DNA from: Candidatus Nanohaloarchaea archaeon
GTDB lineage: Archaea > Nanohalarchaeota > Nanosalinia > Nanosalinales > Nanosalinaceae
Assembly (NCBI GenBank): GCA_042217575.1
Contig: JBDGSK010000014.1
Coordinates: 10,930-74,929, forward strand
Reading direction: 5' to 3'
DNA length: 64,000 nucleotides
Part shown: positions 35 through 36,515 of the stretch, one piece after another
Position numbering within the stretch: position 1 is the stretch's first letter
How the letters are laid out: the number at the start of each line of letters is the position of its first letter
Made by a program: the position numbers and the translations under genes
The notes under the pieces: generated by a model
Database searches by the model: none
Seen by the model: only the letters and a program-made list of their open reading frames with translations
What the model was told of the DNA's origin: nothing

Positions 35-397
35 TTACACATCTAGCTCGGCTTCAAGCTGGTCAAGAACGCCTTCCTGAATCCCGATGAAGCGTTTTTC
101 CTGCCTGGTTCTTCGAAACTCGTCGGTCTCTATCTCGCGTCCCGACTCTCTCTTCCCTGTCTCTATCTCTTTCTTGACGACCTCAATGACCCCCTTTTCC
201 TCCAGCGACTCCACAACCGATTCCTCATCCTCTACCGGGTTCTGGTCGGCAAGTTCCTGCATTTCCTCGTTCAGCCCCTGTTCAGGCAACAGGAGAGCAG
301 AGCTCGTCAGGACATTGCGCCATTTTTCACCGTATAGTTCCCTGGTGTACCCGATGATGTTACGGAGATATCTCCTCTCTCCCGTGGAAAGGTTCAT
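35..397 (-). CDS. small acidic protein, putative winged-helix partner of 394..1122 (paralog of 35355..35678)
   Basis: This 120-aa ORF has an ATGA start/stop overlap with the upstream gene. It starts MNLS like 35355..35678. Both share ESL(E/K)xxG(V/L)(I/L) followed by a basic wing-like segment. Confidence 0.55.
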   Translation of the reverse strand: MNLSTGERRYLRNIIGYTRELYGEKWRNVLTSSALLLPEQGLNEEMQELADQNPVEDEESVVESLEEKGVIEVVKKEIETGKRESGREIETDEFRRTRQEKRFIGIQEGVLDQLEAELDV

Positions 398-1122
398 TCT
401 ATCCTCCGGAGAATTGTTTCCTCCGAGTTCTTGATAAACTCAAGGGCATTGCTGTAGGTCGAATATGAGGGGTTCATGTACTCCGATAGCTCTACATCGT
501 TCTCTTCCAGATACTGTTCGGCCGCGTCCTTGGCAAGTATTTCCTCTCTTGCCGACCGGTACCGGTCAAACCGTTCATGGAGTTCCCGGCTTTCCTCCCG
601 CGCTACAGCTCCCATCTGCTGGAAGTCCCTGTAGAGGCTCTCAAGTTCCTCGTCGAGCTCCTCTCCGGCGTACTTTTCTCTTTCACTTAAATAACGCTGT
701 TTCGCTCTGTAGAGTGCATGCAATTCCTCATTCCCTGTTTCAAGCGGTTCGACCATCCCCTCTGCAAGCCTTGCGACGAACTCGCCGTAGAGCCTTTGAT
801 TGATCGGGTTGTCCGAAGGTATCCCATCCATCCTGGCGTTAGGCTGCAACATCTGGCCGTGAACCGCCTCGTGGGCGAGCTCTGCCGGTCTGAGATCAGA
901 GGAGTAAAGCAGTTCCACTTCGCCTTCAACAACGCGTGTAGTGGCTCTCGTGTCGGAAACAGAGCCCTGATTTACTTCCTGGCCAAGTTCAGCACTTCTA
1001 GCGCTGTCAAACGAATCTCTCGCCGAGAATCCCAGGGTGTCATTAATCCGGGAAAACTCCTGCTCTCCTATACCTGAGTCCTCCAGAATTCTATCAACAT
1101 CTCCCGCAGACAACCCTCTCAT
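394..1122 (-). CDS. uncharacterized acidic protein with intact HExxH motif (copy 1 of a 4-copy paralog family)
   Basis: The track ORF is 394..1239. I trimmed it to ATG 1122 (MRGLSAGD...), where similarity to 35675..36460, 36516..37271 and 37299..38141 begins. HEAVH is encoded at 859..873. Shared blocks are LxYSxxLxxxELA, LYxEFVA and a C-terminal E/DF(I/M)xP. Confidence 0.65.
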   Translation of the reverse strand: MRGLSAGDVDRILEDSGIGEQEFSRINDTLGFSARDSFDSARSAELGQEVNQGSVSDTRATTRVVEGEVELLYSSDLRPAELAHEAVHGQMLQPNARMDGIPSDNPINQRLYGEFVARLAEGMVEPLETGNEELHALYRAKQRYLSEREKYAGEELDEELESLYRDFQQMGAVAREESRELHERFDRYRSAREEILAKDAAEQYLEENDVELSEYMNPSYSTYSNALEFIKNSEETILRRIE

Positions 1123-1184
1123 ATCTACCAGTAAGTAACAACACTTCAAAAGGTTTTTGGTTTTCCATGATGTCTGCGGCACTG

Positions 1185-1191
1185 ATTTAAG
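1185..1191 (+). promoter_or_regulatory. TATA-like box for mre11 (leaderless-type spacing)
   Basis: An ATTTAAG box lies 23-29 nt upstream of the in-frame GTG at 1214. Confidence 0.35.
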
Positions 1192-1213
1192 CTTCAGTAG
1201 CGCCAGTTTTGAC

Positions 1214-2416
1214 GTGAAAGTTTCTATAATCAGTGACACCCACTTTGGCTACAAGTGGGGCGAGGAACGCGGAGAGGATGCGTTCGAGAACGCGAAGGAG
1301 GCATTTGAAAACAGCCTTGACGCGGATCTGATAATACTGCCCGGCGACATATTCGACCGGAAGATCCCGAAGCAGGAGGTTCTTGACCGTGCCGCAGAGG
1401 TTCTTTCTGTGGCGATGGAAGGTGAAAGCGACGCTGAGCCGGATAAGGAGCTTGGGATGCACGGCAACGGGATACCTGTAGTCGCGATCCACGGGACGCA
1501 CGAGAGAAGGCCGCGCTCCTACACTAATCCGATCGAGTTGATGGACAGAACCGGCCAGCTGTACCATTTGGACAACGAAAAAGTTATCTTCGAGAAAGAT
1601 GGCGAAAAAGTTGCTGTCCACGGAATGAGCGGAGTACCTGAACGTTACGCGCCGAAGGTGCTTGAAAAGTTTGATCCGGAACCTGTTGAGGACGCTTTCA
1701 ATATTCTCGTGGTGCACCAGTCGATTGAAGGGTTCGTCTACACCAGTGATGATCACGACGTTTTATCGCTTGAAGACTTCCCTGAAGGTTTCGATCTGAT
1801 CATCGACGGCCACATCCACTGGTACAACCTGGACAGGTTCAACGACCCGGACAGAGAAGACGAGAAACCTCTCGTGCTCCCGGGGAGTACTGTAACGACG
1901 CAGATGCGAAAGGTGGAAGCGGAGAAGGACAAAGGCTTCCTGATGCTTGACACCGAAACAGAGGAACTGGACTTCCGGCCGCTTGAATCCCCGAGAGAAG
2001 TTCACTACATAGAGCTGGAAGTCGAGGGAGAGCCATGGACGGAAGTGAAGGAGCACGCGATCAATGAGTTGAAGCAGGTCGGAGGCGAGAAGCCTCTGGT
2101 CAACCTGAAGATCGACGGAGAGACTGAAGGAAGGGTGAACCCGAGAGAGCTCAAGCAGATGTTCCGCGATGAGATGTTTCTGAACGTCAACTCTTCTGTG
2201 GATCGTACAGAGATCAGCTCCGAGTCCAGTCTTGAAAGTGAGAAAGACCCGTGGACGCAGGGCAAGGAAATGCTCCGGGAGCAGGTCGAAGCCGATGACC
2301 TGGATCTGGATGAGTTCCTGCAGCTGCTTGAAAGCGGCGAGGTAGAGGGATCAATAGAAAAGCTGAAGAACACGGAATTTGAGGAGAGACAGCATGATAA
2401 CGAGGATACAGGTTGA
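1214..2416 (+). CDS. mre11: DNA double-strand break repair nuclease Mre11
   Basis: Calcineurin-like phosphoesterase motifs are present: IISDTHFG, PGDIFD, AIHGTHE, GHIHW. The track ORF starts at TTG 1157. GTG 1214 places the start just before motif I, as is usual for archaeal Mre11. The exact start is uncertain. Confidence 0.85.
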   Translation: MKVSIISDTHFGYKWGEERGEDAFENAKEAFENSLDADLIILPGDIFDRKIPKQEVLDRAAEVLSVAMEGESDAEPDKELGMHGNGIPVVAIHGTHERRPRSYTNPIELMDRTGQLYHLDNEKVIFEKDGEKVAVHGMSGVPERYAPKVLEKFDPEPVEDAFNILVVHQSIEGFVYTSDDHDVLSLEDFPEGFDLIIDGHIHWYNLDRFNDPDREDEKPLVLPGSTVTTQMRKVEAEKDKGFLMLDTETEELDFRPLESPREVHYIELEVEGEPWTEVKEHAINELKQVGGEKPLVNLKIDGETEGRVNPRELKQMFRDEMFLNVNSSVDRTEISSESSLESEKDPWTQGKEMLREQVEADDLDLDEFLQLLESGEVEGSIEKLKNTEFEERQHDNEDTG

Positions 2417-4658
2417 GAACTGGAAGTCGCACCACGAGACCGAGCTTGAGTTCGAGAGCGGTGTCAACGCCCTGATAGGGACGATGGGTAGCGGGAAGTC
2501 TTCCATTCTTGAAGCCATTGTATTCGGGTTTTTCGGGACGCTGCCCGACCTGAAGTCGCGGGAGATCCAGCTGGACGATCTTATACGTAGAACGCCTTCG
2601 AAAGCAGATGAGGCGGAAATCGAGCTGGAGTTCGAGGTTGAGGGAAAGTCTTACAGCGTCTCGAGAGAGCTTGAACGCGGCAAGGGAACGAAGAGAAGCG
2701 AGCTCCGAAAGGACGGAGAGCTTGTCGAAGCGCCCTCTACTACAGAGGTGACGGAGCAGGTAGAAAAAGTTCTCGGCCTGGACTACGAGTCTTTCGTTCG
2801 CGCAGTATACGCCGAACAGAACGAGCTTGACGTATTCCTCGACATGCGGCCCGGCCAGAGAAAGCAGCGGATCGACGAACTGCTGAAGATAGACAGGTTT
2901 GAGGAGGCGAGGAAGACGACAGTAAAGACCGAGAACAAGCTGGAGGACGAGCTTGAACAGCTCCAGGAGCAACTCGAAGAGCTTGAAGACGAGGTTGACG
3001 AGGAGGAGGTCGAAGAACTTGAAAATGATATAGAGGAAAGAAAGACAGAGTCGAAGAAAAAGAAAAAGGAAGTCGAACAGGCCAGGGAAGAGCTGAAGCA
3101 GAAAAAAGAGCAGCTCAAGCAGCTGAAGAAGGATAAGAAGGAAGCAGAAAAACTGCAGAAAAAGAAGACCAAGCTTGAGACCCGCAGAGAGTCCCTGGAA
3201 GAGAAGAGGGAAGAGTTAAGCGAGAAACTGGAAGGGATCGAGAACCCTGAGGAAGAACTTGAAAAGGCGGAAGAACAGCTCGAGGGACTGGAGGAAAGGA
3301 GGGAAAAACTGAATGAGCTTGAGAACGATCTGAAGTACCTGGAGAAGGATTCGGAAAAGCTCGGACAGGAGGTCGAAGAACTTGAGGAACAGGCGGAGAA
3401 GTACGAGAACCTGGAAAAAGTAGAGCAAAAGCTGGAGAAAGCCGATGAAAAAGAGGAGAAGCTGGGAAAGAAGATCAGCCAGGCGGAGGCCGAAGTTGAA
3501 AGGCTGGAGGAGAGCGTGGAGAAGCTTGAAGGAGCAGAAGGCAAGTGCCCTACCTGCGGAGGGGAACTGGACGAGGAGCACCGGGAGAAGATACTGGAAG
3601 AGCGGGAGGAAAGAATCCAGAAGCTGGAGCAGAAACAGGAGCAGTGGCGTGAGAAACAGGAAACGCTCGAAGAGAAGATAGAAAGGCTGAACGAGAAGAA
3701 GGAGGAACTCCTGGAGTACCGTTCAGCCGAGGAAAAACTGGAGAAGAAGCAGGAAAAACTTGGGGAAGTAGATGAGAAGATCGACCAGAAGAAGGAGAAG
3801 ATCGAGGAACTCGACGAAGAGTTCGACGAAGACGAGATCGACCGTCTCAAGGAAAGGATTGAGCGGCTTGAGTCCTACGAGCAGCTCGAAGAAGTAGAGG
3901 AAAAGCTGGAACACATAAAAGAGAACTTGGATGAAGTGAAGCAGCGGCGAGAAGAGATTGAGTTCGACGAGGAAAAGCTGGAGGTGCTGCGAGAGAAACT
4001 TAGCGACCTGAAGGAATCGAAATCGGTCCTGGAAAAGGAGGTCGAGTCCATCAGGGAGATCGTCGAGGAGAAGCAGAAGAGGCTCAAGCAGATGAAGAAA
4101 CAGGCGGATAAACGTGATGAACTGGCGGAAAAGGTCGAAGACCTGGACAGGACTCTCGACTTCGTACACGAGTTCAAGACCGGGCTGGCGAACACTCAGG
4201 TCTCCCTCCGCGAAATATTTGTAGAAAGATTGAACGAACTGATGGACGACATCTGGGGCCAGCTGTACCCTTACGACGATTACTACTCTATCCGGTTGAA
4301 TGCCGAGGAAGATTACGCTCTCGAACTTCTGGACTCGGAGAACAACTGGATCTCCGCGACCGGCGAGGTCTCAGGCGGCGAAAGACATTCCGCAGCGCTG
4401 GTGATGCGCCTCGGTCTGACGTTCGCGCTGTCGCCAAGGATACAGGTGTTGATGCTGGACGAGCCGACGCACAACATGGACTCCAGCGCAGTAGAGGAGC
4501 TTGCCGAAACACTTCGGGAGAACACTTCAAAGCTGATCGACCAGCTTTTCGTTGTCACACACGACCCTGCGCTGGAATCAGCCGCCACCGGCAGCCTTTA
4601 CCAGTTCGACAAGAAAGGTACGGACACAGGCCTGTCAGAAGTCGAAGAAGTGAAGTAG
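2394..4658 (+). CDS. rad50: DNA double-strand break repair ATPase Rad50
   Basis: It has Walker A GTMGSGKSS, a long E/K-rich coiled coil with a CPTC zinc hook (EGKCPTCGGEL), the signature SGGERHSAAL and Walker B VLMLDEPT. ATG 2394 (MITRIQVENWKSH) overlaps the mre11 end by 23 nt. Confidence 0.9.
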   Translation: MITRIQVENWKSHHETELEFESGVNALIGTMGSGKSSILEAIVFGFFGTLPDLKSREIQLDDLIRRTPSKADEAEIELEFEVEGKSYSVSRELERGKGTKRSELRKDGELVEAPSTTEVTEQVEKVLGLDYESFVRAVYAEQNELDVFLDMRPGQRKQRIDELLKIDRFEEARKTTVKTENKLEDELEQLQEQLEELEDEVDEEEVEELENDIEERKTESKKKKKEVEQAREELKQKKEQLKQLKKDKKEAEKLQKKKTKLETRRESLEEKREELSEKLEGIENPEEELEKAEEQLEGLEERREKLNELENDLKYLEKDSEKLGQEVEELEEQAEKYENLEKVEQKLEKADEKEEKLGKKISQAEAEVERLEESVEKLEGAEGKCPTCGGELDEEHREKILEEREERIQKLEQKQEQWREKQETLEEKIERLNEKKEELLEYRSAEEKLEKKQEKLGEVDEKIDQKKEKIEELDEEFDEDEIDRLKERIERLESYEQLEEVEEKLEHIKENLDEVKQRREEIEFDEEKLEVLREKLSDLKESKSVLEKEVESIREIVEEKQKRLKQMKKQADKRDELAEKVEDLDRTLDFVHEFKTGLANTQVSLREIFVERLNELMDDIWGQLYPYDDYYSIRLNAEEDYALELLDSENNWISATGEVSGGERHSAALVMRLGLTFALSPRIQVLMLDEPTHNMDSSAVEELAETLRENTSKLIDQLFVVTHDPALESAATGSLYQFDKKGTDTGLSEVEEVK

Positions 4659-6318: not shown

Positions 6319-8442
6319 TTAACTCTGCAGGAAGAACGCGGCGGATGCTATCATCATCAGGATCACGAGCTGGAACGGCCCTACACCGGGAACGCTTTTC
6401 GGTCGCTGACGCCTGACAGTCCCCTCTACAGCCGTGCTGTTGATGACATCGACGGTCAGGTTGTCTTCTCCATACATCTCCGTGTTAACCGCGTCCGCCC
6501 GGACGACCAGTCTGTTATCCGAAGGCGGTGACAGTTCACCGATCCTGAGGTCGCCTCCGCTTATCTGGACGTAGAACCTCTTCGAGGAGTCCGGCATGAC
6601 TGTAGTGTTGAAGCTGTCACCGTTCTTGTCCCTGAAGCCTGCGAAAGTGTATACCGCGGAGCCTGGTTCAAGACTTACCTCGAAGGTTCTCGGTGAATCC
6701 CGGACGTTGATTATCTGGAACGCTACGTTTTCAGTGTTGCCAAGCGACACGTTCACGCTTTCCTGACTGAACACTACAGGGAACTTCTGGTACCATGCGT
6801 TGTCGAAACATGTCAGCTTCCTGAGTTCCCGGCCATCGTTTCCGGGATCGAGCGTGATCGTTTCTCCTGGCTGGTAGATCGAGCGATTCTCCACGTCTAT
6901 ACCGATGCTGTTCTGAACTACCGGGTACTTGGCGTCGTCGCCGTCGAAGATACATCCCTGCGGGTTCCCAGTTACGCCTATCACATCTCTCTTCGTGTTA
7001 CACAGCCCTGTGTTGCACTGCTGCGTGACCACGTATTCCGCTCTGTCATCTCCGCCGCAGAAACCTACAGTGGCGATCGACTTGTTGTCGCTGCCTGTAG
7101 GAACGGGCGAGAGATCGTTGTTCCACGCTGTGCTGCCCCAGCTGCGTCTCCCGGGCCTGGAGACGTTGGCGTCGAAAGGCTCGTATTTCAGCCATTTGTT
7201 CCAGTCGTCATCGATCCCTCCTATCACAGAGTAAGGATGCTCCTGGATGTACGCCCTGTCGAACCAGCGCCGGGCCGCCGAACCGTAGAGCTGGTTGACG
7301 TTACACGTGTCCTGTGTTCCATCCCGGTCGATGTCTCCCCAGTCCTGGTCGAACCACGAAGCTGTCGGATCCTGGGGTCTCTGCGCGCATACCTCTCTAT
7401 CATCCTTCAATCTTCCAGTATTCTCGTATGGCTCCCCTGCCTGCTTGTACTCTCCCCGGGGAACAATTCTCGGGTTCTCGCCAAGATGGACGCAGACGTC
7501 TCTTCTTGAAGCACAAGCGTATCTCCCGTCTTTCTTTGCGGCGTTGACACTCTCGCCTTTTTCCTCAAGCAGGAACTCTGCCTGGTCATCTCCACACATC
7601 GGCGGGTTCAGGGTCGGAACTTTTTCACCGACTGTTGCAGGATCGTTCTCTCCCTCATCGGTGACGCCGTCGCCATCATTGTCGTTGTTGTCCTTCTCTC
7701 CCTCGAAGTAGATGTCGCCGTGGACGGCTTTCCCGCCCTGTCGGAGCGTTAGATCGGCGTTGTCTCCCACGTTGAAGCCGAGCCCTGAGTCGGGGCCGGT
7801 AATGTCGATGTTGAATACTACTTTTTCCTGCCACGAACCCTTCAGTTTCGGATCAAGTCTCTTGATATCGTCAGGGTCTATCCAGACGCCATCGTTTTCC
7901 GCCACCGTGTCGCCTTTCTCGTCTTCTCCGAACCCTGCCTCTGCGACTGCTGCAAACGAGTTGGCGAACGCTTTCGCGGTCTTTGGCACTCCCCCATCTT
8001 CTACACTGGTTCTTATCGTGCCAGACCAGTCAGGGTGGTAGTATGTCCCCCTGGCACCTTCGGTGCCGTACTGACCGTACTCCTGTATCTGGTAGTTATC
8101 TATCCTTGAGTCTCCGGCAGGGCCTGGAGGAAACGGCACTCCACGGTTCGATATGACCCACTGAGTTGACTCGGTGATCGCCCACTGATCCGCATCGTCT
8201 TTAGAACCGTCAGAGTTGTTCCACATCTGATCTGAAGGATCGTAGTACTCGTCGTCGTCCTGCATCTGGTCAGATACAGATTCAAGCTTGTTCATGTACC
8301 CGTCAAACTTGTAGCTGCTCGATCTGTCGTTCCCTGTCGCGTTGAAGTCCTCATCTCTCCGCACCTGGTCGAACCCGGATGCCAGAGAGGTCAGGATCAG
8401 CACAGAGAGAGCGGCGAGAGCCAGTTTCTTTCTAGTTTCCAT
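6319..8442 (-). CDS. large secreted Cys-rich acidic surface protein with extreme C-terminal hydrophobic anchor
   Basis: ATG 8442 gives the signal-peptide-like METRKKLALAALSVLILTSLASG. The protein is 707 aa and rich in D/G/C. It ends in VPGVGPFQLVILMMIASAAFFLQS. CGDDxxE and DREVC motifs are shared with 8432..10831. Confidence 0.7.
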   Translation of the reverse strand: METRKKLALAALSVLILTSLASGFDQVRRDEDFNATGNDRSSSYKFDGYMNKLESVSDQMQDDDEYYDPSDQMWNNSDGSKDDADQWAITESTQWVISNRGVPFPPGPAGDSRIDNYQIQEYGQYGTEGARGTYYHPDWSGTIRTSVEDGGVPKTAKAFANSFAAVAEAGFGEDEKGDTVAENDGVWIDPDDIKRLDPKLKGSWQEKVVFNIDITGPDSGLGFNVGDNADLTLRQGGKAVHGDIYFEGEKDNNDNDGDGVTDEGENDPATVGEKVPTLNPPMCGDDQAEFLLEEKGESVNAAKKDGRYACASRRDVCVHLGENPRIVPRGEYKQAGEPYENTGRLKDDREVCAQRPQDPTASWFDQDWGDIDRDGTQDTCNVNQLYGSAARRWFDRAYIQEHPYSVIGGIDDDWNKWLKYEPFDANVSRPGRRSWGSTAWNNDLSPVPTGSDNKSIATVGFCGGDDRAEYVVTQQCNTGLCNTKRDVIGVTGNPQGCIFDGDDAKYPVVQNSIGIDVENRSIYQPGETITLDPGNDGRELRKLTCFDNAWYQKFPVVFSQESVNVSLGNTENVAFQIINVRDSPRTFEVSLEPGSAVYTFAGFRDKNGDSFNTTVMPDSSKRFYVQISGGDLRIGELSPPSDNRLVVRADAVNTEMYGEDNLTVDVINSTAVEGTVRRQRPKSVPGVGPFQLVILMMIASAAFFLQS

Positions 8443-10831
8443 CCTGTCCAAGCCTCGCAAGTCTTGAGAAGAAGCTGTAGAAAAGCCCCTCCTCCTCGTT
8501 GATTTTGCCGCCTACCCGGGCGTCTGTGTCGTCACAGTTGACGCCAGGGCCGCAGTCGTCTTCAAGAGCTATGCCCTCCTCCCCTCCTGTAGGGTTGTAC
8601 TCCGAGTGGTAAGGATTGGGGTTTTCGCCCCAGAAGTAGGCGATATCCTTTGCGTTTCCTGAATCGCCGCCGGTTATCAGATCGTATCCTTCATCGTTGA
8701 GGTAGTCGTTAAGCATCTCATTGTCAAGGTCGTACCATTCGCCTCCGTAGTCTTGCCCGTTTACATCGTTGCCAGTGTTGTCCCATGACTGGTATTCGCC
8801 GTCATCATCTGAAAGATCGTTTCTCATGTTGGTTCCTGTTCCATCAGGGTCGACGCAGACCTCGCGATCCGGGGACCGGTCACCTTTCTCGTAGCGATCC
8901 GCGTTCGGCGATTTGATGTTTATCACGGTTCCCTCTGCGTATGCTCTGCCCCTGTACAGGCATGCGTTCCCGTCAAGCCCTTCATTGAGGAAGCCCCTGT
9001 CCTCCTTCCAGTCAACGCATTTCTGGGCGTGCTGAAGCCGTGTCTTGACGTTCTGGTACTCTACTTCATAGCCTTCCATAACGAGAAGATGCTCCTGTGG
9101 TTCATCGCCACAGGCCTCTGAAAGCGGCGACACATCCTCGCTGCCGTCGCTTCCTCTTTCAAAGTCGCAGTCGACGACTTCTGAGTTATCGGCGTCTCCA
9201 TCGTTTTCCTCGATGTAGTTAACCATCTTGCACGCCGAGTAAGATCTGCCCAGCGAGAACGTTTCCACGTCCGCCTCTACTGCGTCGTCCATGTTGTTGC
9301 TGCTCCAGTCTGTATCGCCACCCCATGCCGGGCTTCCACGGCTTCCATCGCCCTCCTCCGTGTAGAAATCAGCGTAAGCGATACAGACATTCTTCTCCCC
9401 GGGACACGAGGCCGCGGCTTCAATCTTGTACGTGTAGTCCCTGTATTCACTGCTGTCGCCGTTGTTCAGCGTCTCCTCACGGAACCAGACACGTTCCCCG
9501 ACGCGCTGTGAACCGTCCGGACTCATCTTTCCGGTGACCTGTCCATTTTCAATTATCACGAATCCGTCTCCGTAACCTCGTGGGCCGTCAGCGTCAACTG
9601 TTCTCGTCTTGTGCGCCTGGCACCATACCTCGTTTCTCGTGTTATCCCCGAACGCCCTGTAGTCCGTCCAGGTTCCAGCAGGATCGTTGTCGGCCATCGA
9701 GTCAGTGCTCCTGCCCTCGGAGTCGCCTCCTCCATCGACAAGGTTCTCGTTGTCGCAGTTGTACTCATCGTCCGGCTCACCGTTCTTGTCCCAGGCCCGT
9801 GTCTCTGCGCTGCAGGTGTAACTAACGCTTGAACAGTAGTAACAGGTCGTCGTACATTTCTTCCCGCAGCTGCAGGTGTATGACCCCTCCTGCTGGTCGC
9901 TGCACGAAGTAGAGGTCGAACCGCCGCCCTCGCAGCTGTCCTGGTCGTAGTCCTCAGTGTTGCCGTCAGCGTTTACAAGCCAGTAGTAGTTGCTCTCATC
10001 GCTGCTGTAATCAGTTTCTCCGCAGCCGCCGATCTCGCAGCCAGCGTTTGAAGTGTATCCCTCGGTGGTGCAGTAAGGTTTGTCGTCCCTGCACTGCAGC
10101 GAGTCCTCCATGTAAGGGCTTTCAACGGCTTGTTCATCGTGAAGCCTTCCGTAGTCTTTTCTACAGTTTATGCTTGTCGAGCTATCATACGCGTCGATGC
10201 TGAAGCTTCCGAGAGTGTCCTCTCCCTCGTTGGTCTTTCCGTCGCCGCAGGTGACGCTTCCGTCAGGGTTAGGCGGGTCGACCACCCGGCCGGTCTTTTC
10301 CACCGTACCCGATGGAAAACCGCTCAGCGTCTTCTTCGCGAACTTGCCGAAGCCGAAACGATCCGTGGCCTCCGAGCCGCGATCCTTGATGTAGTACTCC
10401 GTCACTTCAGGCGTCGAGGTAGAAGTATCGGCGACCGTTATGCTGTTGTCGTCGTTTCCCTGGTGTAGCGTCGCCTGGAAGAAGACTGACTCGGTATTCC
10501 CGACCGCTGGCGTGTTGCCGCCTGCTGTCAGGCTTGTCAGGTCGGCGTCCCAGATGTTTCCTTCAATCCAGTCGTAGCTGTAAGGCTTGACACAGCCTAA
10601 GTCTGTATCATCCAGTCCGTCTTTCGACTGGTCGGTATCGTTGTCACCGCTATCGGTGCACATCGGGGTGGAAACAGTCGAGGGACAGGAAATGTCAGGA
10701 TCCAGGGTACACGGCGCCGAATTTACGGTTCCGTCACAGCTGCCGATACATCCCGTGTCGGTGATTGAGAAAGCTGGAGCCGCTAGGAATGCTAATGTAA
10801 CGACTATGATTGCGGCTCCGTGCGCGCGCAT
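8432..10831 (-). CDS. large secreted Cys-rich, extremely acidic protein
   Basis: ATG 10831 gives MRAHGAAIIVVTLAFLAAPAFS. The protein is 799 aa with many Cys and D/E/G/T/S-rich stretches and no C-terminal TM segment. It overlaps the downstream gene start by 11 nt. Confidence 0.7.
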   Translation of the reverse strand: MRAHGAAIIVVTLAFLAAPAFSITDTGCIGSCDGTVNSAPCTLDPDISCPSTVSTPMCTDSGDNDTDQSKDGLDDTDLGCVKPYSYDWIEGNIWDADLTSLTAGGNTPAVGNTESVFFQATLHQGNDDNSITVADTSTSTPEVTEYYIKDRGSEATDRFGFGKFAKKTLSGFPSGTVEKTGRVVDPPNPDGSVTCGDGKTNEGEDTLGSFSIDAYDSSTSINCRKDYGRLHDEQAVESPYMEDSLQCRDDKPYCTTEGYTSNAGCEIGGCGETDYSSDESNYYWLVNADGNTEDYDQDSCEGGGSTSTSCSDQQEGSYTCSCGKKCTTTCYYCSSVSYTCSAETRAWDKNGEPDDEYNCDNENLVDGGGDSEGRSTDSMADNDPAGTWTDYRAFGDNTRNEVWCQAHKTRTVDADGPRGYGDGFVIIENGQVTGKMSPDGSQRVGERVWFREETLNNGDSSEYRDYTYKIEAAASCPGEKNVCIAYADFYTEEGDGSRGSPAWGGDTDWSSNNMDDAVEADVETFSLGRSYSACKMVNYIEENDGDADNSEVVDCDFERGSDGSEDVSPLSEACGDEPQEHLLVMEGYEVEYQNVKTRLQHAQKCVDWKEDRGFLNEGLDGNACLYRGRAYAEGTVINIKSPNADRYEKGDRSPDREVCVDPDGTGTNMRNDLSDDDGEYQSWDNTGNDVNGQDYGGEWYDLDNEMLNDYLNDEGYDLITGGDSGNAKDIAYFWGENPNPYHSEYNPTGGEEGIALEDDCGPGVNCDDTDARVGGKINEEEGLFYSFFSRLARLGQDGN

Positions 10832-10872
10832 GTAGACGTTTGGAACATGTCTCAATAAAAATCCCGCGGCCT

Positions 10873-13581
10873 TCAGTTCAGGATTTCATCTCGCCTGAAG
10901 AAGTCGGAGCTTACTTTTGACTTGATCTCGGTAATGTTCTTGAGCGCGTAGTAATCAGGCACTATGAGTTTCTTGACGATCTCTGGCCACTTGCCGCTTT
11001 CCACGTTGCTCTCAACGTTGTTTACTATCTCCTGGGCGGAGTTCTGCTCTGAGAACCAGTTGTATTTCTGGAACAGTTTCCCGCCCTCGTATACTGTTCC
11101 CTTGGTGTCAGTAAGGTTCCAGGCACAGGTGAACTCTCCGGGACTGTCGGTCGGCACACCTGTTACATTCACGTTGAAGCTGTCGCCAACCTTTGCCAGT
11201 GTTTGCTGGAGCGTGGGTTCGGCGATGTCATTGTATTTCGGGGCGCTCCCGAACCTGGCAGCGCTGTCTGAAGACGCTATATTGCTCGGCCGATCGCTCG
11301 GCTGTCCTCTCCAGCACGCTCCCTCTATGCTGTCAAGCTGGTTCCCGGTCGCCCATCTGAACTTGATGAAAGACGCCGGTATAAGCTTGAAGCCTACCGT
11401 ATCGGTCGGGTTTTCCTCGACATCCGGCATCACATAGTCGAAGTAGGTCTTGTAATTTTCAGGGCGGCAACGCCACACGTAGTTAGTCTCGCCGGAGCTA
11501 TCATTGTAGTAGCCCCAGCGATTGCTTTCAGGACACTTCCCGGCGTAGCCTCCCTTGAAAAGCTCGACTCCCAGCATAACGTTGTTTTCCGTGTAGACAG
11601 GGTTTACAGACCTGATGCGCGGATTCTCCGGTGCAAGAATGTTCCCGACCGTCCAGGCGTTTGAGAGCTGGTCGGTCTGCTCTGGATCCTTGTAAGGATC
11701 CGCGTAACTCTCGGGTATCCCTTTGTCGACGTAGGACTGGTAGCGGTGAGGGCTATCCGAGTCTATCTCCTCTTCGGCGCGGGCAAGTAGCTCATATGCG
11801 AACGGATAGTAACCGGCTTCTATCGCGAACGTCTTTCCGTAGGGGATGTAGGACTCGTTCAGCTTGATCTGTGCCACAGGCATCCTGTCATCATGCTTTG
11901 AAGGTATTCTACCGGCTATAGCGTCGCAGACCTGGTTGGCCTGGTACTGCATCTTTTTCTCCACCTCGCCAGCTGAAAGGCTTGACTTCTTGATATCAGA
12001 GGTAGATACCAGCGGATGCTGGACAATGTTGCCGCTGTTGTCGCAGACGAACTCGGTCTTGTTCTTCGCCATCGCAGGGATCTCCGCCTGGAAACTGCCG
12101 TAGGTTTTTCCCGTTAGTTGGTCGGTATACTTGCTTCCCGCACCGTAGAATGCAACTTTTCGGTCTTCCAATCCTCTGTTGTTCTTAACCGTCTTTTTTA
12201 CTAGACCCACTCTTGGCTCCTTCTTACTTGACCCGATCTTCTCTGAGTGATCTCCAAGGCCGGAGCAACCACCGTCTTCTGGAAGTCCTCCAGAACCATA
12301 TACAGGTTCTGTGCCCCTGAGATCTGCGGTCCCATCCCCATCATTGTCTACGCCGTCATTGCACACAGTTACTCTTTTCCAGTTACCTGTAGCGCTGTTA
12401 CAGACAAATCTGTCCTTGCTTTTGCCTGACGGAGAATAGACGGGATTCGAACCCTTGAGCCTGAATTCTCCACACATATGGAACTTTGGAGGGTTGTAAA
12501 CACTATTGACACTCTCCACGTTCTCATTATCGCCGTATCGCCATCCTACAACTATCTCGTAAAGATTAGTGTAGGCAACATCTCTCTTCGAGGAAAAGTC
12601 CTTATTTGCAGCCTTGAAATGGCCAAGAGGACACTTTGTGCCGCAATTCTCAGTATTGACCGCATCGTCCTTATAGGTGAACGTCGTCTTGACAACTCCG
12701 CAGGGAGTGTCCTCTGAAGAAACGCAGGTCGCTTTATCACCACTTACGCTGCTCCAGTTGACATACTTGTACAGTCCATCTGCATTCGGTTCGAACACAA
12801 CCCCCATCTTGGGCGTATAATACTTTGTGCTTCCTCCGCTAATCGACAGGTCAGTCTCTGTTACCTCGATCAGGCCCGCGTTTGTATCTACACTCTTTTG
12901 GAGGACAGTAGAATTGTCGCCGGTGTCTGACTCCAAGCGAATTATCTGGAGTTCAGGAGGAGGGTTTCCCAAGATAGCTGGCGGGTTCTTCTCCATCTGT
13001 ACCTTGAGGTTTTCAGCCGTTGCCTTCGGTCTAACTATAAGCCTCTTGGTGTTAGCATCATAGGAAAAAGCGAGAGATGCTCTGTCCCAATCCGTATCCG
13101 AATCTTCCGTAAAACGTGTGAAAAGCGGACCGTAGGAGTACTTTCCTGGCTTCAAGTTGAGGTAGTTGCCGGGTATATTTGGCGCTGTGGGATAGCTGTC
13201 CCCTGCAGGACCATACCTGTTATAGTAATAATCTTTGGAACCATCGCCTGTCCAGACAACGGAATCTGTGCCGCTACTCAGGGTCACGTTAAACTTTCCC
13301 GCAACCTGAATCTTACCTCCTTGACAGGTATACCTATCCTGGTCACAGAAGGCGCCCCAGTACCCGATCTCTTCGCCCGGCCAGCTTGGCTTGTAGTCGG
13401 AAGAAGGTTTACTGCCATAGGGGTGTATGTAAAACGAGAGATATGACAGATGATGACTGCCTGTGAGCACACCTGTACCATATATACTTGTTTCCACACC
13501 CCTGTCCGGCTGTTTGGCTGCGGCAGGAATTATCAGTGCAAGCAGAAGTAGAGTTGCCGCGGCGGTTTTGACAGCGTCCAT
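10873..13581 (-). CDS. large secreted Cys-rich protein with CNDGVDNDGDG calcium/metal-binding-like motif (paralog of 13654..16503)
   Basis: The signal peptide is MDAVKTAAATLLLLALIIPAAA and the protein is 902 aa. Collinear blocks shared with the 949-aa neighbour are PPKFHMCGE, VYSPSGKSKDRFVC, CNDGVDNDGDG (12331..12363), GGYAGKCPESNRWGYY and ACWRGQPSD. Confidence 0.75.
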   Translation of the reverse strand: MDAVKTAAATLLLLALIIPAAAKQPDRGVETSIYGTGVLTGSHHLSYLSFYIHPYGSKPSSDYKPSWPGEEIGYWGAFCDQDRYTCQGGKIQVAGKFNVTLSSGTDSVVWTGDGSKDYYYNRYGPAGDSYPTAPNIPGNYLNLKPGKYSYGPLFTRFTEDSDTDWDRASLAFSYDANTKRLIVRPKATAENLKVQMEKNPPAILGNPPPELQIIRLESDTGDNSTVLQKSVDTNAGLIEVTETDLSISGGSTKYYTPKMGVVFEPNADGLYKYVNWSSVSGDKATCVSSEDTPCGVVKTTFTYKDDAVNTENCGTKCPLGHFKAANKDFSSKRDVAYTNLYEIVVGWRYGDNENVESVNSVYNPPKFHMCGEFRLKGSNPVYSPSGKSKDRFVCNSATGNWKRVTVCNDGVDNDGDGTADLRGTEPVYGSGGLPEDGGCSGLGDHSEKIGSSKKEPRVGLVKKTVKNNRGLEDRKVAFYGAGSKYTDQLTGKTYGSFQAEIPAMAKNKTEFVCDNSGNIVQHPLVSTSDIKKSSLSAGEVEKKMQYQANQVCDAIAGRIPSKHDDRMPVAQIKLNESYIPYGKTFAIEAGYYPFAYELLARAEEEIDSDSPHRYQSYVDKGIPESYADPYKDPEQTDQLSNAWTVGNILAPENPRIRSVNPVYTENNVMLGVELFKGGYAGKCPESNRWGYYNDSSGETNYVWRCRPENYKTYFDYVMPDVEENPTDTVGFKLIPASFIKFRWATGNQLDSIEGACWRGQPSDRPSNIASSDSAARFGSAPKYNDIAEPTLQQTLAKVGDSFNVNVTGVPTDSPGEFTCAWNLTDTKGTVYEGGKLFQKYNWFSEQNSAQEIVNNVESNVESGKWPEIVKKLIVPDYYALKNITEIKSKVSSDFFRRDEILN

Positions 13582-13653
13582 AGCCCTATCTTTATTCCGC
13601 TTCTTTTAATTTCATGTCATGGCTTGCCGTACATGGCAGGTATCGGACCTGTG

Positions 13654-16503
13654 TCACTGCAGCAGGTTGGTTGAGTCCTGGAATATCTTGTTAAATGTCT
13701 TGCTTTCGGCTTTTTCCTCGGAAGGTACCAGGCTTTCTTTCTGGAAGAAGTTGCTTCCTACTGTCTCCCCGAGAGTACTCATGTTTGTGAATGTGTCGCA
13801 TGGGACGTCGAAGACCCGGTAGCAGCTCCTGTAGCTCAGGTCGTTTCTCTGGGCGATGTCTTTGACGGCTTTTGATATCCTGTCCATCGCGTCTTTCTTC
13901 CGCCACCAGTTGATCCAGAGAGACCGGTCCTGGGCGACTTTCCTGCCATCTTCTGTGGTCACGGTAAAGTTGCAGGTGTAGGTGCCGCTGGTGCTGGTGT
14001 CGACCCCGCTTACCGGAAGGGTTACAAACCATCCGACCGTGTTGCCGATCGGTTGGTCGACTTTCCTGCTTCCTGAAAGGGTTGCAGGTTTGTTCGAGGG
14101 GTTGCCCTTCCAGCACGCTGTTTTTATCTTGTCGATATTGGCGTTGTAGTTGTCCTGGAGGCTTTGAAGCGTGCTTCCGGGTATCTTGACACCCACGTTT
14201 TCCGTGCCTTTCTCAATATCGGGCAGGATGTAGATATAGTTAGGCTCTCCCGAGCACCGCCATTCGCCTTTGTAGTAGCCCCAGCTTTTTCCGGGAGGGC
14301 ATTTGCCTGCGAAGCCTCCGGTGAACCTGACAGGGTTTTCAGCCGGGAGTCCTGCGAAAGTCTGGATGCTGACGCCGTTGATGCGGTCGTTGAACACCGC
14401 CAGATAGTTTCCGACCGTCCACGAGTCTTGGAGGCTGTCCTTCTGTTTCGGAGCCTCGTAGGGTTGCGAGACGGTAGCGTTCATCCCTTTGTCCTTCAGA
14501 TCCGAGGCTGTCGGGTTCCCGGTGCCGAACACTTTCTGCTCGAACTCCTGGAGTGACTGGGTTGAAATCGGCTTAAAGCCGTTTGGCGTGGCGTATTCTT
14601 TTCCGAAGGGAAGCAGGGACTGGGGTATCTGTATCTGGGCTACCGCGAGTTCTTTGCCGTGGCCGGTTACCGTTGCCGAGTTCAGGCATTTCCGCTGTGC
14701 GTAGTAGGCCACTTTGTCTCGGATATTGTTCTTTGAAAGAGAGCTCTCCCGGATAGTGCTCGAAACCGATACGTGCGGATGTGAGGCGATCTCTCCTTTA
14801 TCGGTGTTGCACATGTAAGTGTAGGCGAGCTGGTCTTCCTTGCCCTGGTTGATCACCTGGCTGATGTCAAGCGTTGAACCGTCTACCTGGAACCTGTAGT
14901 CTTTCTGGATGTTCTTGTAGCGGCAGCCTGTTATCTGATCCCTGTACTTCCCTGTCTCTGACTGAGTGTAGAGCGCTACTTTCCGGTCATTTTCTCCTAT
15001 GTTCAGGGCCTGTGCCAGGCTTATCCTTGCGACCGTGGCTTCAGGGCAGGTGTTGGTTCCCTCATTCTTTACGGAGGTGCTTCCGCATTTGGGGTCAGAT
15101 GGCATGTTCCCGATTTCCTTCTGGTACCACGAGTTAGGGGCGTCGATCTTCCCGTTTCCGTCATTGTCAACGCCGTCGTTGCACTCGGTTACGGGTATCC
15201 AGCGGCCTTTTTGGGGGCTGCAGCGGAACTGATCCTTCTTGCCTGCGCTCGGCGAATACACGACTTTTCCTTCGAGAAGTGTCAGGCCATCGCCGCATAT
15301 ATGGAACTTCGGTTTGTTATCCTTCAGGTAGAGTCCCGGGCCTCCTGCCATAGGTGTTTCAGTGTACTTGTTGCAGTTGAGACCGGTTTCGTAGCCGCTG
15401 GGGCACATATCCTTCCCGTTTCTCGGGTACTCCCAGCCGTAGATAACATCAGAGGTTGGGGCGAACAGTTTTTCAGACTCCGTCGCAGTGTAACTGCCGG
15501 AGCAGTAGGTTTCCTGGGCGTGGGCCAGCGAGCATTTGGGTCCGCAGGCAACTCCCACGTAAGGCTCTGGGAGACACACGTTCAGCGCGGTTTCGAACGT
15601 TCTCATCGCTGTGTTGCATGGCTCGTCATCGTTCTTGGTGCAGTCAACTCCGTACTTGAAAGGATCCTGGAACACGCTGTTGAAGCTTTCCGTGTCAGAG
15701 TTTAATCGGGCGCCTTTCTCCACCTTCTTGGCTATGTAGTCAACACTGAGGCTTGAGGAAAGCGGGTTCCAGTCTCCCTGCAGGACTGAGAGGCTGAACA
15801 TGTCCAGTAGATTGTCGACAGGGTTCATGTCCTGAACGACGACGTCGCCAGTCGAAACTTCTGAGGGATCGGCGTCCGGCGGCACGTCCGGGCTCATCCT
15901 GAAAGCATAAAGTTGTGGAGGCTTGTCTATCATCGGGAGAGCGTTCTGGATCGGCTCTTTCTCAGTCAAGACCTGGATGTACTTTCCTTCAGGGTGTGGG
16001 TAAAGCGTTATAGTGCCTCCTTTATCCGCCAGTTTGTACTGGCTGCCGTCCCAGTAGTAGAACTCCATCGGCCCTATCTTTCCCGGAGGACAGCTTATCG
16101 ACTTGCTGTTGCTGCCCGGGCCGTTTATTATGGGTAGGCCGCTGGGATAGCTGTTGAGGCTGAGGCTTTTCGGTTCGTAGAGGTAGTCAACGCCGTTGAC
16201 CGGGGAAGGTTTCCGCACCACTTTGACTCTCTTGCCGCAGAGTTCTATCCTCTGCCCTACTGTGTCCCACGGATCGACAAAGCTGTCAGGGTTGTCAGGA
16301 CAGTTGCCGTTACAGGGAATCGAGAAGTCGAAGTAGGTTCTGTACATCCGGTCTACGTGGCCGCCGGGCAACCTGTAGGCTCCCTGAGAGGTGTCGAGGT
16401 ACAGGAAGTCATCCATGTCTATGTTCGGAGCGGACGGGGCCGCGGCCGCGCCGGTGAAAAGGAGTAGCAGAGATGCTATTACTACTTTGCCTCGACTACT
16501 CAT
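13654..16503 (-). CDS. large secreted Cys-rich protein with CNDGVDNDGNG motif (paralog of 10873..13581)
   Basis: The track ORF runs to 16653. ATG 16503 gives the signal peptide MSSRGKVVIASLLLLFTGAAAA and avoids overlap with 16547..17809. Shared blocks are KPKFHICGD, VYSPSAGKKDQFRC, CNDGVDNDGNG (15151..15183), GGFAGKCPPGKSWGYY and ACWKGNPSN. Confidence 0.75.
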   Translation of the reverse strand: MSSRGKVVIASLLLLFTGAAAAPSAPNIDMDDFLYLDTSQGAYRLPGGHVDRMYRTYFDFSIPCNGNCPDNPDSFVDPWDTVGQRIELCGKRVKVVRKPSPVNGVDYLYEPKSLSLNSYPSGLPIINGPGSNSKSISCPPGKIGPMEFYYWDGSQYKLADKGGTITLYPHPEGKYIQVLTEKEPIQNALPMIDKPPQLYAFRMSPDVPPDADPSEVSTGDVVVQDMNPVDNLLDMFSLSVLQGDWNPLSSSLSVDYIAKKVEKGARLNSDTESFNSVFQDPFKYGVDCTKNDDEPCNTAMRTFETALNVCLPEPYVGVACGPKCSLAHAQETYCSGSYTATESEKLFAPTSDVIYGWEYPRNGKDMCPSGYETGLNCNKYTETPMAGGPGLYLKDNKPKFHICGDGLTLLEGKVVYSPSAGKKDQFRCSPQKGRWIPVTECNDGVDNDGNGKIDAPNSWYQKEIGNMPSDPKCGSTSVKNEGTNTCPEATVARISLAQALNIGENDRKVALYTQSETGKYRDQITGCRYKNIQKDYRFQVDGSTLDISQVINQGKEDQLAYTYMCNTDKGEIASHPHVSVSSTIRESSLSKNNIRDKVAYYAQRKCLNSATVTGHGKELAVAQIQIPQSLLPFGKEYATPNGFKPISTQSLQEFEQKVFGTGNPTASDLKDKGMNATVSQPYEAPKQKDSLQDSWTVGNYLAVFNDRINGVSIQTFAGLPAENPVRFTGGFAGKCPPGKSWGYYKGEWRCSGEPNYIYILPDIEKGTENVGVKIPGSTLQSLQDNYNANIDKIKTACWKGNPSNKPATLSGSRKVDQPIGNTVGWFVTLPVSGVDTSTSGTYTCNFTVTTEDGRKVAQDRSLWINWWRKKDAMDRISKAVKDIAQRNDLSYRSCYRVFDVPCDTFTNMSTLGETVGSNFFQKESLVPSEEKAESKTFNKIFQDSTNLLQ

Positions 16504-16546
16504 GTACTTAAGTACAGGTTCGCTTGTTTTTAAACCATAGAGATGC

Positions 16547-17809
16547 TCATCGAGGGATCTTCCAGAGCAGCGAGTTCTTGACCGATTCAAGTTCCGAGCT
16601 GTCTCCTCCTGGCATCGCCCCGAGAAGCCCCATGTAGGAGACTTCTTCCTCATCCTGTTCTTCGTACTCTTTCCAGTACTTTCTCAGCTTTGAGTGGACT
16701 CCCGATACCTCTTCGCGAGTGTTGCCTATACCGCAGGTGTTCCCGACGCCGACTACTGCTACTTCGCCGTCGAACTGCTCCACCAGTTCCTTGACCTTTG
16801 AGACCGCAGGTTTGTAGGCGTTGTAAATCTCCTTCTTCATCGGCTTTGAGGCTTCAGGCGCTGACTGTTTCACTATGACGCCTTCGAGCGGCAGGTCGTG
16901 TTCTGTGGCCGCTTCCTCTATCTTGGATTTTTCCACGCCCGGCCCTCCCATCATTACGCCTACGCCTTCAGAGATTGCTCCGGTATCCTCGCCTTCAAAC
17001 TTCGCTCCGGCATCGACAGTGATGACTGCTTCAAGGTCGTTCTCGTCGGCTAACTCGTCTATAGCGTTGCCGTACTTGCCGAGTCGGGCGCCGGGGCCTT
17101 CGCTCTTGAGAACGTGTACGGTATTGCCTTCTATCTCTTCCTCCGAGTGGAGGATATCCTCCGCCGCCTCCTCGGGTTCATTCTCTATCAGCTTTGCAGC
17201 CACTAGAGGCCCTATAGCATCGCCTATCGGTGCGTTGTCAAGGAATGCTCTTGTGGCCTCTTTCTGTGATTCCGCGATCTCCAGGTATATCGGCACCATC
17301 ATCTGGACAAGACCGACAAGCTGGAAGTTCCTGGTCTTCTTGATCAGCTGTCGGAAGTGGCGCATCACCTTGTAGATCTGGTGCGTACCCATCACTCCCT
17401 TGAAGGCCATGGATAGATCGGCCAGTTCTTCCTCATCTTCAGTGTCCGCGTTTTTCTCGACGAACCTTCTGAACTTGTGTTCCGAGGTGTCAAGTACGTG
17501 TTCCAGTTTGCCTACGAGACCGGAGGGATCGATACCGGTCGGTGCGGAGAACTTGAAGTCTCTTATGGTCTCGAACTTTTCTCTCAGGCCTCTGTCAACC
17601 GAGGAAGTGAGGTTGTCAAGGAACATCTTTTCAGAGGCGGCCCGGTACTCCTCAAGGTCGGCGAGCGCGCCCTTCATCTTCCTGTCGGTCTGCCATATCA
17701 TTATCCTCGGGAAGAAGAATATCAGCCCGAAGAAAAGCAGGGAGATGACTGTTTGGATTATCATGAAGATATTGCTTTCTCCGCCCATCGGTAAAAGTGG
17801 AAGTACCAT
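16547..17809 (-). CDS. DUF1512-family archaeal membrane-associated protein
   Basis: An N-terminal TM segment (IFMIIQTVISLLFFGLIFFFP) is followed by a soluble domain. The layout and N-terminal sequence resemble haloarchaeal DUF1512 proteins from memory. The start is either ATG 17809 or GTG 17830. Confidence 0.5.
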   Translation of the reverse strand: MVLPLLPMGGESNIFMIIQTVISLLFFGLIFFFPRIMIWQTDRKMKGALADLEEYRAASEKMFLDNLTSSVDRGLREKFETIRDFKFSAPTGIDPSGLVGKLEHVLDTSEHKFRRFVEKNADTEDEEELADLSMAFKGVMGTHQIYKVMRHFRQLIKKTRNFQLVGLVQMMVPIYLEIAESQKEATRAFLDNAPIGDAIGPLVAAKLIENEPEEAAEDILHSEEEIEGNTVHVLKSEGPGARLGKYGNAIDELADENDLEAVITVDAGAKFEGEDTGAISEGVGVMMGGPGVEKSKIEEAATEHDLPLEGVIVKQSAPEASKPMKKEIYNAYKPAVSKVKELVEQFDGEVAVVGVGNTCGIGNTREEVSGVHSKLRKYWKEYEEQDEEEVSYMGLLGAMPGGDSSELESVKNSLLWKIPR

Positions 17810-35354: not shown

Positions 35355-35678
35355 TTACCGGTTTCGCATCCAGTCCAGAAGCTCCCTGCTGAACCTCAGG
35401 TATCTGACCTTTTCCTTGCGGAAGCCGTAAGAGTTTTCATCAGTCACTGTCCTTTTCTCAGTCCGTTCTTCCTCGTCCAGAAGCCCGCGCTGCTTCAGGG
35501 ACTCAAGTTCGGTTTCGACCGCCAGTCCCGACCTCTGCTTCACCGTATCCATCGCCTCCTCGGGGAAACCTTCCTCTTCCAGCATCTCTACAGGGTCAGA
35601 ATCGTCGATCCGGGCGAGCTCCTCCGCGTATTCAAGCATCGCTTCCAGCAGGTCTTCTTCTCTACCGGACAGGTTCAT
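35355..35678 (-). CDS. small acidic protein, putative winged-helix partner (paralog of 35..397)
   Basis: This 107-aa ORF starts MNLS and has an ATGA overlap with 35675..36460. [11 protein letters not shown] followed by a basic segment resembles a wHTH recognition helix plus wing. Confidence 0.55.
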
Positions 35679-36460: not shown

Positions 36461-36515
36461 GTCGTTACATCCGGCTCGTAAAAATAAATAGGTTGTGGAG
36501 GAGAATAGAGTTTTT

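Follow-up and report, generated by a model that had tools for sequence, protein, structure and literature searches.

A predicted gluzincin-like protein family of Nanohaloarchaea with a winged-helix-like partner, a shared promoter element and catalytically degenerate paralogs

Near one end of a 64,000-nucleotide (nt) stretch of DNA from a Candidatus Nanohaloarchaea archaeon (GenBank assembly GCA_042217575.1, contig JBDGSK010000014.1, positions 10,930 to 74,929; the window in what follows), a minus-strand gene at 394..1122 encodes a protein of 242 amino acids (aa) that carries the zinc-protease motif HExxH and is followed by a small gene at 35..397, and three related genes stand in tandem elsewhere in the window. 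The locus raises the question of whether the HExxH protein belongs to a metallopeptidase family, some members of which have lost their active site, and what the small neighboring gene contributes. An earlier note, made from the sequence of the window, had read the arrangement as a zincin-type ancestor with catalytically dead paralogs. This reading is well supported by conservation, by the coordinated loss of the candidate catalytic residues in the tandem copies and by the predicted topology.

The family gene begins with the ATG at 1122, and its translation includes LYSSDLRPAELAHEAVHGQM and LYSSDLRPAELAHEAVHGQMLQPN. The HEAVH motif (H84 to H88) is encoded at 873..859 on the minus strand, and the strings and coordinates quoted in the earlier note hold throughout. 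When 1.84 billion cluster representatives were searched exhaustively with an HMMER profile, 29 family proteins were returned, all with E ≤ 4e-21 and nothing weaker. A word-indexed search of 5.8 billion proteins found a single ortholog (P0002, 56% identity, motif HESVH), and eight proteins in all were obtained from the same set with a profile. One further family locus, from Ca. Nanohalobium, was found with a four-sequence alignment; when the single window protein was used as the query, the locus search gave no match. Every named member is annotated as a ‘hypothetical protein’ of a Candidatus Nanohaloarchaea metagenome-assembled genome (MAG). Judged from these searches and from domain-library scans, the family is previously undescribed, restricted to Nanohaloarchaea and not covered by any Pfam or NCBIfam model; no description of it turned up in literature searches that paired Nanohaloarchaea with metalloprotease or with Mre11/Rad50.

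The family alignment comprised 34 sequences (33 full-length and one fragment), and the motif is kept in 21 of the 33 full-length members and degenerate in the remaining 12. The 21 HExxH members share only 23–56% identity, and H84, H88 and the downstream E114 (codon at 783..781 on the minus strand) are invariant in all of them. E85 is Glu in 20 of the 21 (95%) and Asp in one, A117 is invariant, and E121 (codon at 762..760) is Glu in 86% and Gln in the rest. The motif consensus is HExxH[GA]xM, with variable positions after it and a small residue (A/S/T/G) following HE. The earlier note had tied its reading to conservation of the two histidines and the glutamate among orthologs, and this conservation extends to distant relatives, the one departure being an HDxxH. 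As 21 independent representatives of the family retain it, HExxH in these sequences is not a chance motif.

An AlphaFold2 model of the 242-aa protein, built on a 10-sequence alignment, has a predicted local distance difference test (pLDDT) score of 84.4 and a predicted template modeling score of 0.86. It consists of three short N-terminal helices, a five-stranded sheet (residues 40–73), helix 79–92, a loop, helix 106–124 and long C-terminal helices. Helix 79–92 follows directly after the β-sheet and bears HEAVH (pLDDT ∼94; 92–94 over the block), and helix 106–124 (pLDDT ∼96) bears Y112, E114, A117 and E121, so E114 lies 26 residues past the second histidine, on the next helix. In the model, this succession of sheet, HExxH helix and glutamate helix is the canonical gluzincin order. 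Structure prediction, which the earlier note had proposed as a check, thus places the motif on a confident helix right after the β-sheet and the invariant E114 on the helix that follows. A Foldseek comparison with predicted viral structures (BFVD) gave one match to a 250-aa ‘Peptidase’ (E 2e-4, probability 1.0, TM 0.39); further BFVD matches, to M34, M48, IrrE-like and SprT-like proteins, were insignificant.

The predicted protein resembles gluzincins (clan MA(E): thermolysin M4, M1, M61 and MATCAP) in the HExxH helix after a β-sheet, in the invariant Glu on the next helix and in the E-x-x-A on that helix, which in the nanohaloarchaeal family is followed by a helical C-terminal half. The spacing of 26 residues between the second His and the Glu compares with about 18–70 in known gluzincins. 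The family differs from them in that it has no sequence-profile or significant structural match to them, in its small size (∼240 aa) with an N-terminal three-helix segment, in having A/S/T/G after HE instead of a large hydrophobic residue, in having E121 in place of the usual Asp of ExxxD, and in that about a third of its members are catalytically dead by sequence.

These dead members include all three tandem genes of the window. Translation and alignment bear out the claim of the earlier note that HExxH is present only in the dispersed copy and that the tandem copies are degenerate at the same position. Copy A (37299..38141, minus strand, 280 aa) reads AYLAVKG at the motif position, keeps E114 and has Arg for E121; copy B (36516..37271, minus strand, 251 aa) reads AHQAAIA, with Asp for E114 and Arg for E121; and copy C (35675..36460, minus strand, 261 aa) reads ASLLMHG, with Gln for E114 and Arg for E121 (aligned motif blocks SDLAYLAVKGQI, GDLAHQAAIAKSM and GELASLLMHGKM, respectively). 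The orthologs of copy A (P0009 and P0014) share its degenerate motif; those of copy B are P0004 to P0007 and P0012, and those of copy C are P0011 and P0024. When the 242-aa protein was compared with the window by tblastn, copy A was found with an E-value of 1.7e-10 and copy C with 1e-8; copy B was assigned by profile, its relatives, which were outside the query profile, scoring up to 5.5e-56. The four family proteins of the window align over their whole length with 23–27% identity.

Across the 12 degenerate members, H84, E85, H88 and E121 are each retained in 8%, and E114 and A117 in 33% (E114 is replaced in 8 of the 12). The residues L71, A83, Y112, F115, Y144, A200, A201 and P218 are kept at 92–100% in the same proteins. 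The joint loss of a discontinuous set of residues with the scaffold kept is therefore the signature of an abandoned active site and not of a folding core. A neighbor-joining tree places 11 of the 12 degenerate proteins in one clade (bootstrap 90), within which three subfamilies (bootstrap 97–100) match copies A, B and C of the window, and P0034 lost the motif independently. Between the window and its closest relative (locus L003), orthologs of the dead copies show 0.18–0.27 nonsynonymous substitutions per site (dN; 0.18 for copy A), with synonymous substitutions (dS) saturated. A dN/dS ratio could be computed for copy A only (0.07, with dS close to saturation at 2.5); in the remaining pairs dN is well below dS. 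Because dN is so low while dS is saturated, the dead copies are best read, from substitution rates, as old, conserved pseudoenzymes under purifying selection and not as decaying genes.

The array occupies the slot between the gene of threonyl-tRNA synthetase (ThrRS) and the S19e ribosomal cluster in the window, in L003 and in a more distant MAG (L010). Two dead copies in L010 flank a gene of a Peptidase_M29 aminopeptidase (L010:3423-4547), and the same MAG has two HExxH paralogs elsewhere. A Peptidase_M29 aminopeptidase gene is also present at L006:151-1266, divergent from an HExxH member; L006 and L010 are unrelated loci. An insertion of ∼4 kb separates copies B and C in L003 (L003:11116-14655) and is not found in the window; it holds a CBASS-type (cyclic oligonucleotide-based anti-phage signaling system) pair, CD-NTase (CD_NTase_C) and a Cap15-like effector (Cap15_CD_rec), plus six tiny ORFs (open reading frames). 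In the window, an asparagine synthase gene (38390..40141, plus strand) stands between the ThrRS gene and the array. It is absent at that position in L003 and L010 and is therefore a lineage-specific insertion or rearrangement.

Taken with its small neighbor, we consider it on balance probable that the 394..1122 product is a catalytically competent, gluzincin-type member of the family with its partner, that the tandem genes encode pseudo-peptidases, and that the whole forms an autoregulated protease/regulator module. Several results weigh against this interpretation. A Foldseek search of PDB gave no significant match (none with E ≤ 0.001; best E 0.26, TM ≤ 0.34), although several of the top, weak matches were gluzincins (MATCAP, M61 aminopeptidase, ERAP1 and aminopeptidase N). 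Scans of all members against Pfam, NCBIfam, PADLOC and PHROGs gave nothing above threshold, and PDB sequence-profile searches with the full length and with the core 95 residues returned coiled-coil noise only. None of the 34 members fits the extended zinc-protease signature PS00142, in the form that we take it to have, the residue after HE being small; true zincins such as FtsH (HEAGH) likewise fail this signature. One member (P0010) has HDxxH instead of HExxH, one HExxH gene has neither the partner nor the promoter element described below, the numbers of partners do not track those of proteases, and the putative recognition helix of the partner is very acidic. On the other side, seven members weakly match phrog_1365, of unknown function (E ∼0.004–0.08), the sole recurring library match; in the four matches that were inspected individually, the alignment lies over the strand-plus-HExxH segment.

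Some of these results also bear on an alternative that we regard as rather unlikely, namely that this is a non-proteolytic metal-binding or scaffold family in which the metal of HExxH...E is structural or sensing, or which works in a non-cleaving, Rir-like manner, the core function being protein binding that the ‘dead’ copies perform equally well. A precedent exists among COG2856 proteins, as Rir of phage TP-J34 blocks its repressor without cleavage (PMC6868357). That 12 of the 33 members lack the site yet are under purifying selection fits this alternative, as do the atypical motif, with a small residue after HE, and the absence of a significant match to a solved peptidase. Against it stand the conservation of the H-E-H-E quartet across 21 divergent lineages, including a general-base Glu that a structural site does not need, and the predicted zincin topology.

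The second component of the module is the small acidic protein encoded at 35..397 on the minus strand (120 aa, predicted to be winged-helix-like), whose ATG overlaps the stop codon of the family gene as ATGA, an overlap that suggests translational coupling. A second such gene (35355..35678, minus strand, 107 aa, 27% identical to the first) overlaps the stop codon of dead paralog C, also as ATGA. A partner ORF of ∼100–135 aa follows a family gene, often overlapping it, twice in the window, in L001–L006 and in L007/L008. In the Ca. Nanohalobium locus (L009:8620-9368), one HExxH gene is followed by two tandem partners of 134 and 115 aa, and L005 begins in the same way before its contig ends; in L010, one partner follows and another precedes the family gene. 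Overall, 8 of the 9 HExxH genes examined are followed by a winged-helix-like ORF of ∼100–135 aa. The exception is P0017 (L020), an HExxH member with no adjacent partner and no GTAACAA, and family genes and partners stand at 3:1 in the array of the window but at 1:2 in Nanohalobium.

The partner ORFs form one divergent family with an N-terminal M-x-L-x-x-x-E-x-x-F-L and a central S-L-x-E-K-G-L. The AlphaFold model of the 120-aa protein (pLDDT 69) contains helices at residues 5–31, 44–52 and 58–67 and a hairpin (71–80/97–106) with a disordered wing tip (pLDDT <50). Foldseek matches were insignificant (E ≥ 0.12) and mostly winged helices (RTP, AbfR2, MarR, PadR and TFIIE), Pfam matches were sub-threshold (HTH_56, HTH_27, MarR, TrmB, LexA_DNA_bind and RuvB_C), and no Xre or HTH_3 match was found. 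The suggestion of the earlier note that the partner is a winged helix is therefore weakly supported: the topology and the nature of most matches agree with it, and the low pLDDT and the insignificance of every match do not. DNA binding by the partner is plausible but uncertain, as the third, putative ‘recognition’, helix is strongly acidic and the pLDDT of the model is low.

The module lies divergent from mre11 and rad50, as the earlier note had it and as Pfam confirms. The mre11 ORF opens at 1157 and has a probable GTG start at 1214 (plus strand; Metallophos), rad50 lies at 2379..4658 (plus strand; SMC_N and Rad50 zinc hook), the two genes span 1214..4658, and herA follows downstream of rad50 in convergent orientation (Pfam). 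The suggestion that more of the locus may lie beyond the window edge is not supported: the two-gene module of 394..1122 and 35..397 ends inside the window with the stop codon at 35..37, and in the orthologous locus L002 the gene after the module is an unrelated one, for prolyl-tRNA synthetase. A longer reading frame of the family gene from a GTG at 1239 (281 aa) was rejected as spurious, as the extension crosses the promoter and start of mre11 and shows no conservation at the protein level. The N-terminus of family genes is carried too far into intergenic DNA by gene callers in this way (394..1239 in the window and L004:1749-2582, where P0013 is called at 277 aa), and an apparent ‘LKLKSVP’ protein similarity is conserved promoter DNA.

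The intergenic region shared with mre11 (1123..1213, 91 nt) holds two blocks that are more conserved than the proteins. On the family-gene side, a TATA-like CTTTTGAA (∼1144–1153, minus strand) is followed by the element TGTTGTTAC (1135..1143, minus strand), which lies 12 nt before the family ATG. The same 12-nt distance from the family start is seen in L001 and L004, and in L002 the distance is 21 nt. On the mre11 side, the block at 1176..1197 contains a TATA-like TTTAAG, and its 22-nt CTGAAGCTTAAATCAGTGCCGC is identical in the window and at L004:1763-1784, where the flanking family proteins are only 39% identical; this block is probably the TFIIB recognition element (BRE)/TATA of mre11 for a leaderless transcript.

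The element of the family-gene side recurs at the dead copies. GTAAC(A/G)AC, the reverse complement of TGTTGTTAC, abuts the ATG of copies B and C: the TATA GTTAAATAA of copy B overlaps the stop of copy A, with GTAACAAC (37272..37279) immediately preceding the copy B ATG, and copy C has GTAACGAC at 36461..36468 in the same position. Related forms abut family gene starts in L003, L005, L009 and L010, and a looser GTAATAACAAC precedes the L006 gene. In GTAACAAC/TGTTGTTAC form, the element is located at L001:50-58, L002:6500-6508, L004:1815-1823, L003:9993-10001, L005:591-597, L009:7887-7893 and L010:4864-4870. When GTAACAA was counted over the window and 11 loci (141 kb), 9 of 18 heptamers were found ≤40 nt upstream of family gene starts versus 0.09 expected, and the family promoters that bear it span genera with 30–40% identical proteins. 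A general promoter element was considered and rejected, as, of the five GTAACRAY sites of the window, three belong to family promoters and two lie within genes. This distribution suggests that the family operons have a dedicated regulator, with GTAACAA as a candidate operator, and the co-encoded winged-helix-like protein would be the obvious candidate for its binder.

Two loci have other sequence features upstream of their genes. Upstream of the solo P0017 gene, CACTGTC-TGATA-GACAGTG forms a perfect palindrome that separates a TTTAAAAA box from the GTG start (L020:6960-7000). P0020, an HExxH member, stands in an operon-like run (L007:351-4345 and L008) of ORFs of 378, 217, 398 and 201 aa that lack any Pfam domain, and a TGTTGTTG...GTAACAA inverted repeat is located upstream of the 201-aa gene; the context of L007/L008 may differ from that of the other loci and is perhaps a mobile element.

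The position beside mre11 raises the possibility of a DNA-repair protease that acts with Mre11-Rad50 on protein-blocked ends or DNA–protein crosslinks, similarly to SPRTN/Wss1, with the partner as a DNA-targeting subunit instead of a substrate or repressor. In the window, L002 and L004, the HExxH gene and its partner stand divergent from mre11(-rad50), even though the family proteins of L002 and L004 are only 30 and 39% identical to that of the window and the outer flanks differ, and conserved blocks lie inside the shared intergenic region, all of which would agree with such a role. However, the linkage is confined to one part of the family and is absent in L005, L006, L007, L009 and L020, the dead copies lie among translation genes, the conserved motif is located beside the family gene start, ∼40 nt beyond the mre11 TATA, and no Pfam similarity to SprT or WLM was detected. 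We therefore consider a repair protease unlikely.

A mobile toxin–antitoxin-like or defense module, in which the zincin would be the toxin and a DNA-binding protein the antitoxin, is very unlikely. Such a role has been proposed for COG2856-Xre pairs (Makarova et al. 2009; PMC2701414), and the overlapping two-gene operon of an enzyme and a small putative DNA binder, the surroundings of P0020 (L007, L008) among ORFs without known domains and the CBASS-like island within the L003 array are in line with it. Against it, the chromosomal positions are conserved across genera (ThrRS...S19e in the window, L003 and L010; mre11 in three loci), no member had a PADLOC match, and the family is lineage-restricted and not patchy across taxa. 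Lastly, a chance HExxH in an ordinary lineage-specific helical protein, to be expected by our estimate in roughly 1% of proteins of such size and composition and in keeping with the lack of matches to known families, is effectively refuted by the presence of the motif in all 21 non-degenerate representatives, the invariant downstream Glu and the coordinated loss.

Other zincin groups were compared with the family and set aside. Membership in M78 (ImmA/IrrE) was rejected, as no PF06114 match up to E 5 was found in the 34 members, and hhalign comparison with a COG2856 alignment, a narrow profile of phage TP-J34 Rir and six homologs from Streptococcus phages only, gave a probability of 1.4–3.2% with only 12 residues around HExxH aligned. 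This agrees with the earlier note, which saw similarity to M78 in the motif only. A metzincin assignment (HExxHxxGxxH) fails on the lack of a conserved His six residues past the second His and of any third His. There is likewise no third His to fit SprT or Wss1 (WLM), no SprT-like or WLM match in Pfam, and the SprT-like match in BFVD is insignificant (rank 44, E 1.6). The minigluzincins proabylysin and projannalysin and M48-like proteins are small standalone archaeal zincins, and as small, soluble archaeal HExxH + Glu proteins whose physiological role is unknown they resemble the nanohaloarchaeal family; the latter differs in giving no sequence match to them in the PDB profile searches, in being twice as long, and in its long helical C-terminal half and dedicated partner gene.

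The closest functional parallel is to ImmA/IrrE. As there, a small cytosolic HExxH...E-x-x-A protein shares a two-gene operon with a small protein that may bind DNA, one nanohaloarchaeal subclade lies beside DNA-repair genes, and the promoter element is compatible with autoregulation. The differences are that the nanohaloarchaeal partner is winged-helix-like and not Xre, that the protease gene comes first, that the His-to-Glu spacing is 26 versus 16 in the Rir-like alignment, and that the module is archaeal and chromosomally fixed instead of mobile. The resemblance is an analogy of logic only, with no homology in the Pfam and hhalign comparisons. Published examples of such logic are IrrE/DdrO, ImmA/ImmR and the non-cleaving Rir/Crh (PMC6868357), and it has been described more generally for COG2856-Xre pairs (PMC2701414).

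Active and inactive protease paralogs are paired in Rpn11-Rpn8, CSN5-CSN6, the β and α subunits of the mitochondrial processing peptidase (MPP) and rhomboid/iRhom. The nanohaloarchaeal family is similar to these in combining a catalytic member with conserved paralogs in which just the catalytic residues are missing and which selection maintains, and differs from them in that its dead copies are at a separate locus with a partner gene of their own.

For the favored protease/regulator module, we infer zinc binding, proteolysis, the binder of GTAACAA and the role of the dead copies as follows. H84 and H88 would be zinc ligands and E85 the general base, all on one helix, with E114 on the following helix as the third ligand, backed by A117 and E121. 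The 394..1122 gene would be co-transcribed, and probably translationally coupled, with the gene of its winged-helix-like partner. In this view, the tandem dead genes descend from a single ancient event in which the whole catalytic set was lost, with later duplication giving the three subfamilies, and selection keeps them in the ThrRS–S19e slot. The partner, or another dedicated factor, would bind GTAACAA, which in the family operons lies after the TATA box and ahead of the start codon, and the active protease would act on the partner or be controlled by it. The dead paralogs may act, without catalysis, as subunits that bind or scaffold the same class of partner.

An ImmA/IrrE-like protease/regulator mechanism is our preferred model, held with modest confidence; the conserved operon and the promoter motif are behind it, and the solo HExxH gene without a partner and the strongly acidic recognition helix weaken it. 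A more specific and doubtful version is a non-homologous analog of IrrE/DdrO or ImmA/ImmR, in which the new zincin would cleave or sequester a winged-helix repressor at GTAACAA and so derepress its own operons, and in mre11-linked lineages also mre11-rad50 after DNA damage, with the pseudo-proteases as decoys or sensors.

Beyond the module, the proteome of the window is acidic (even S19e has an isoelectric point of 4.9), and its gene order is shared with Candidatus Nanohaloarchaea MAGs that carry family members. Four consecutive, very large ORFs (713, 807, 902 and 999 aa) at 6319..16653 on the minus strand, the first of which is hydrophobic in an N-terminal segment and in its C-terminal tail, probably encode giant surface proteins.

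In summary, judged from alignments and predicted structures, these proteins are best described as a new Nanohaloarchaea-restricted gluzincin-like family, usually with a winged-helix-like partner, with a family-specific promoter element and an ancient pseudoenzyme branch. Nanohaloarchaea are host-dependent and have genomes of ∼1 Mb. The genome studied here spends six genes on the family and its partners, and a second MAG at least seven (two HExxH genes, two dead paralogs and three partner ORFs), which suggests an important lineage-specific function. Should the prediction fail, these would be conserved lineage-specific hypothetical proteins of modest interest. If it is correct, a new zincin family, outside Pfam and NCBIfam models, would be added to the peptidase catalog, and the family would offer a clean natural case of an enzyme with long-lived pseudoenzyme paralogs in archaea, as well as a testable candidate protease/regulator circuit with a defined promoter element. 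To our knowledge, essentially nothing is known of gene regulation and the DNA-damage response in these organisms, and an IrrE/DdrO-like switch, if true, would be the first known in DPANN archaea to place a damage or stress response under protease control.

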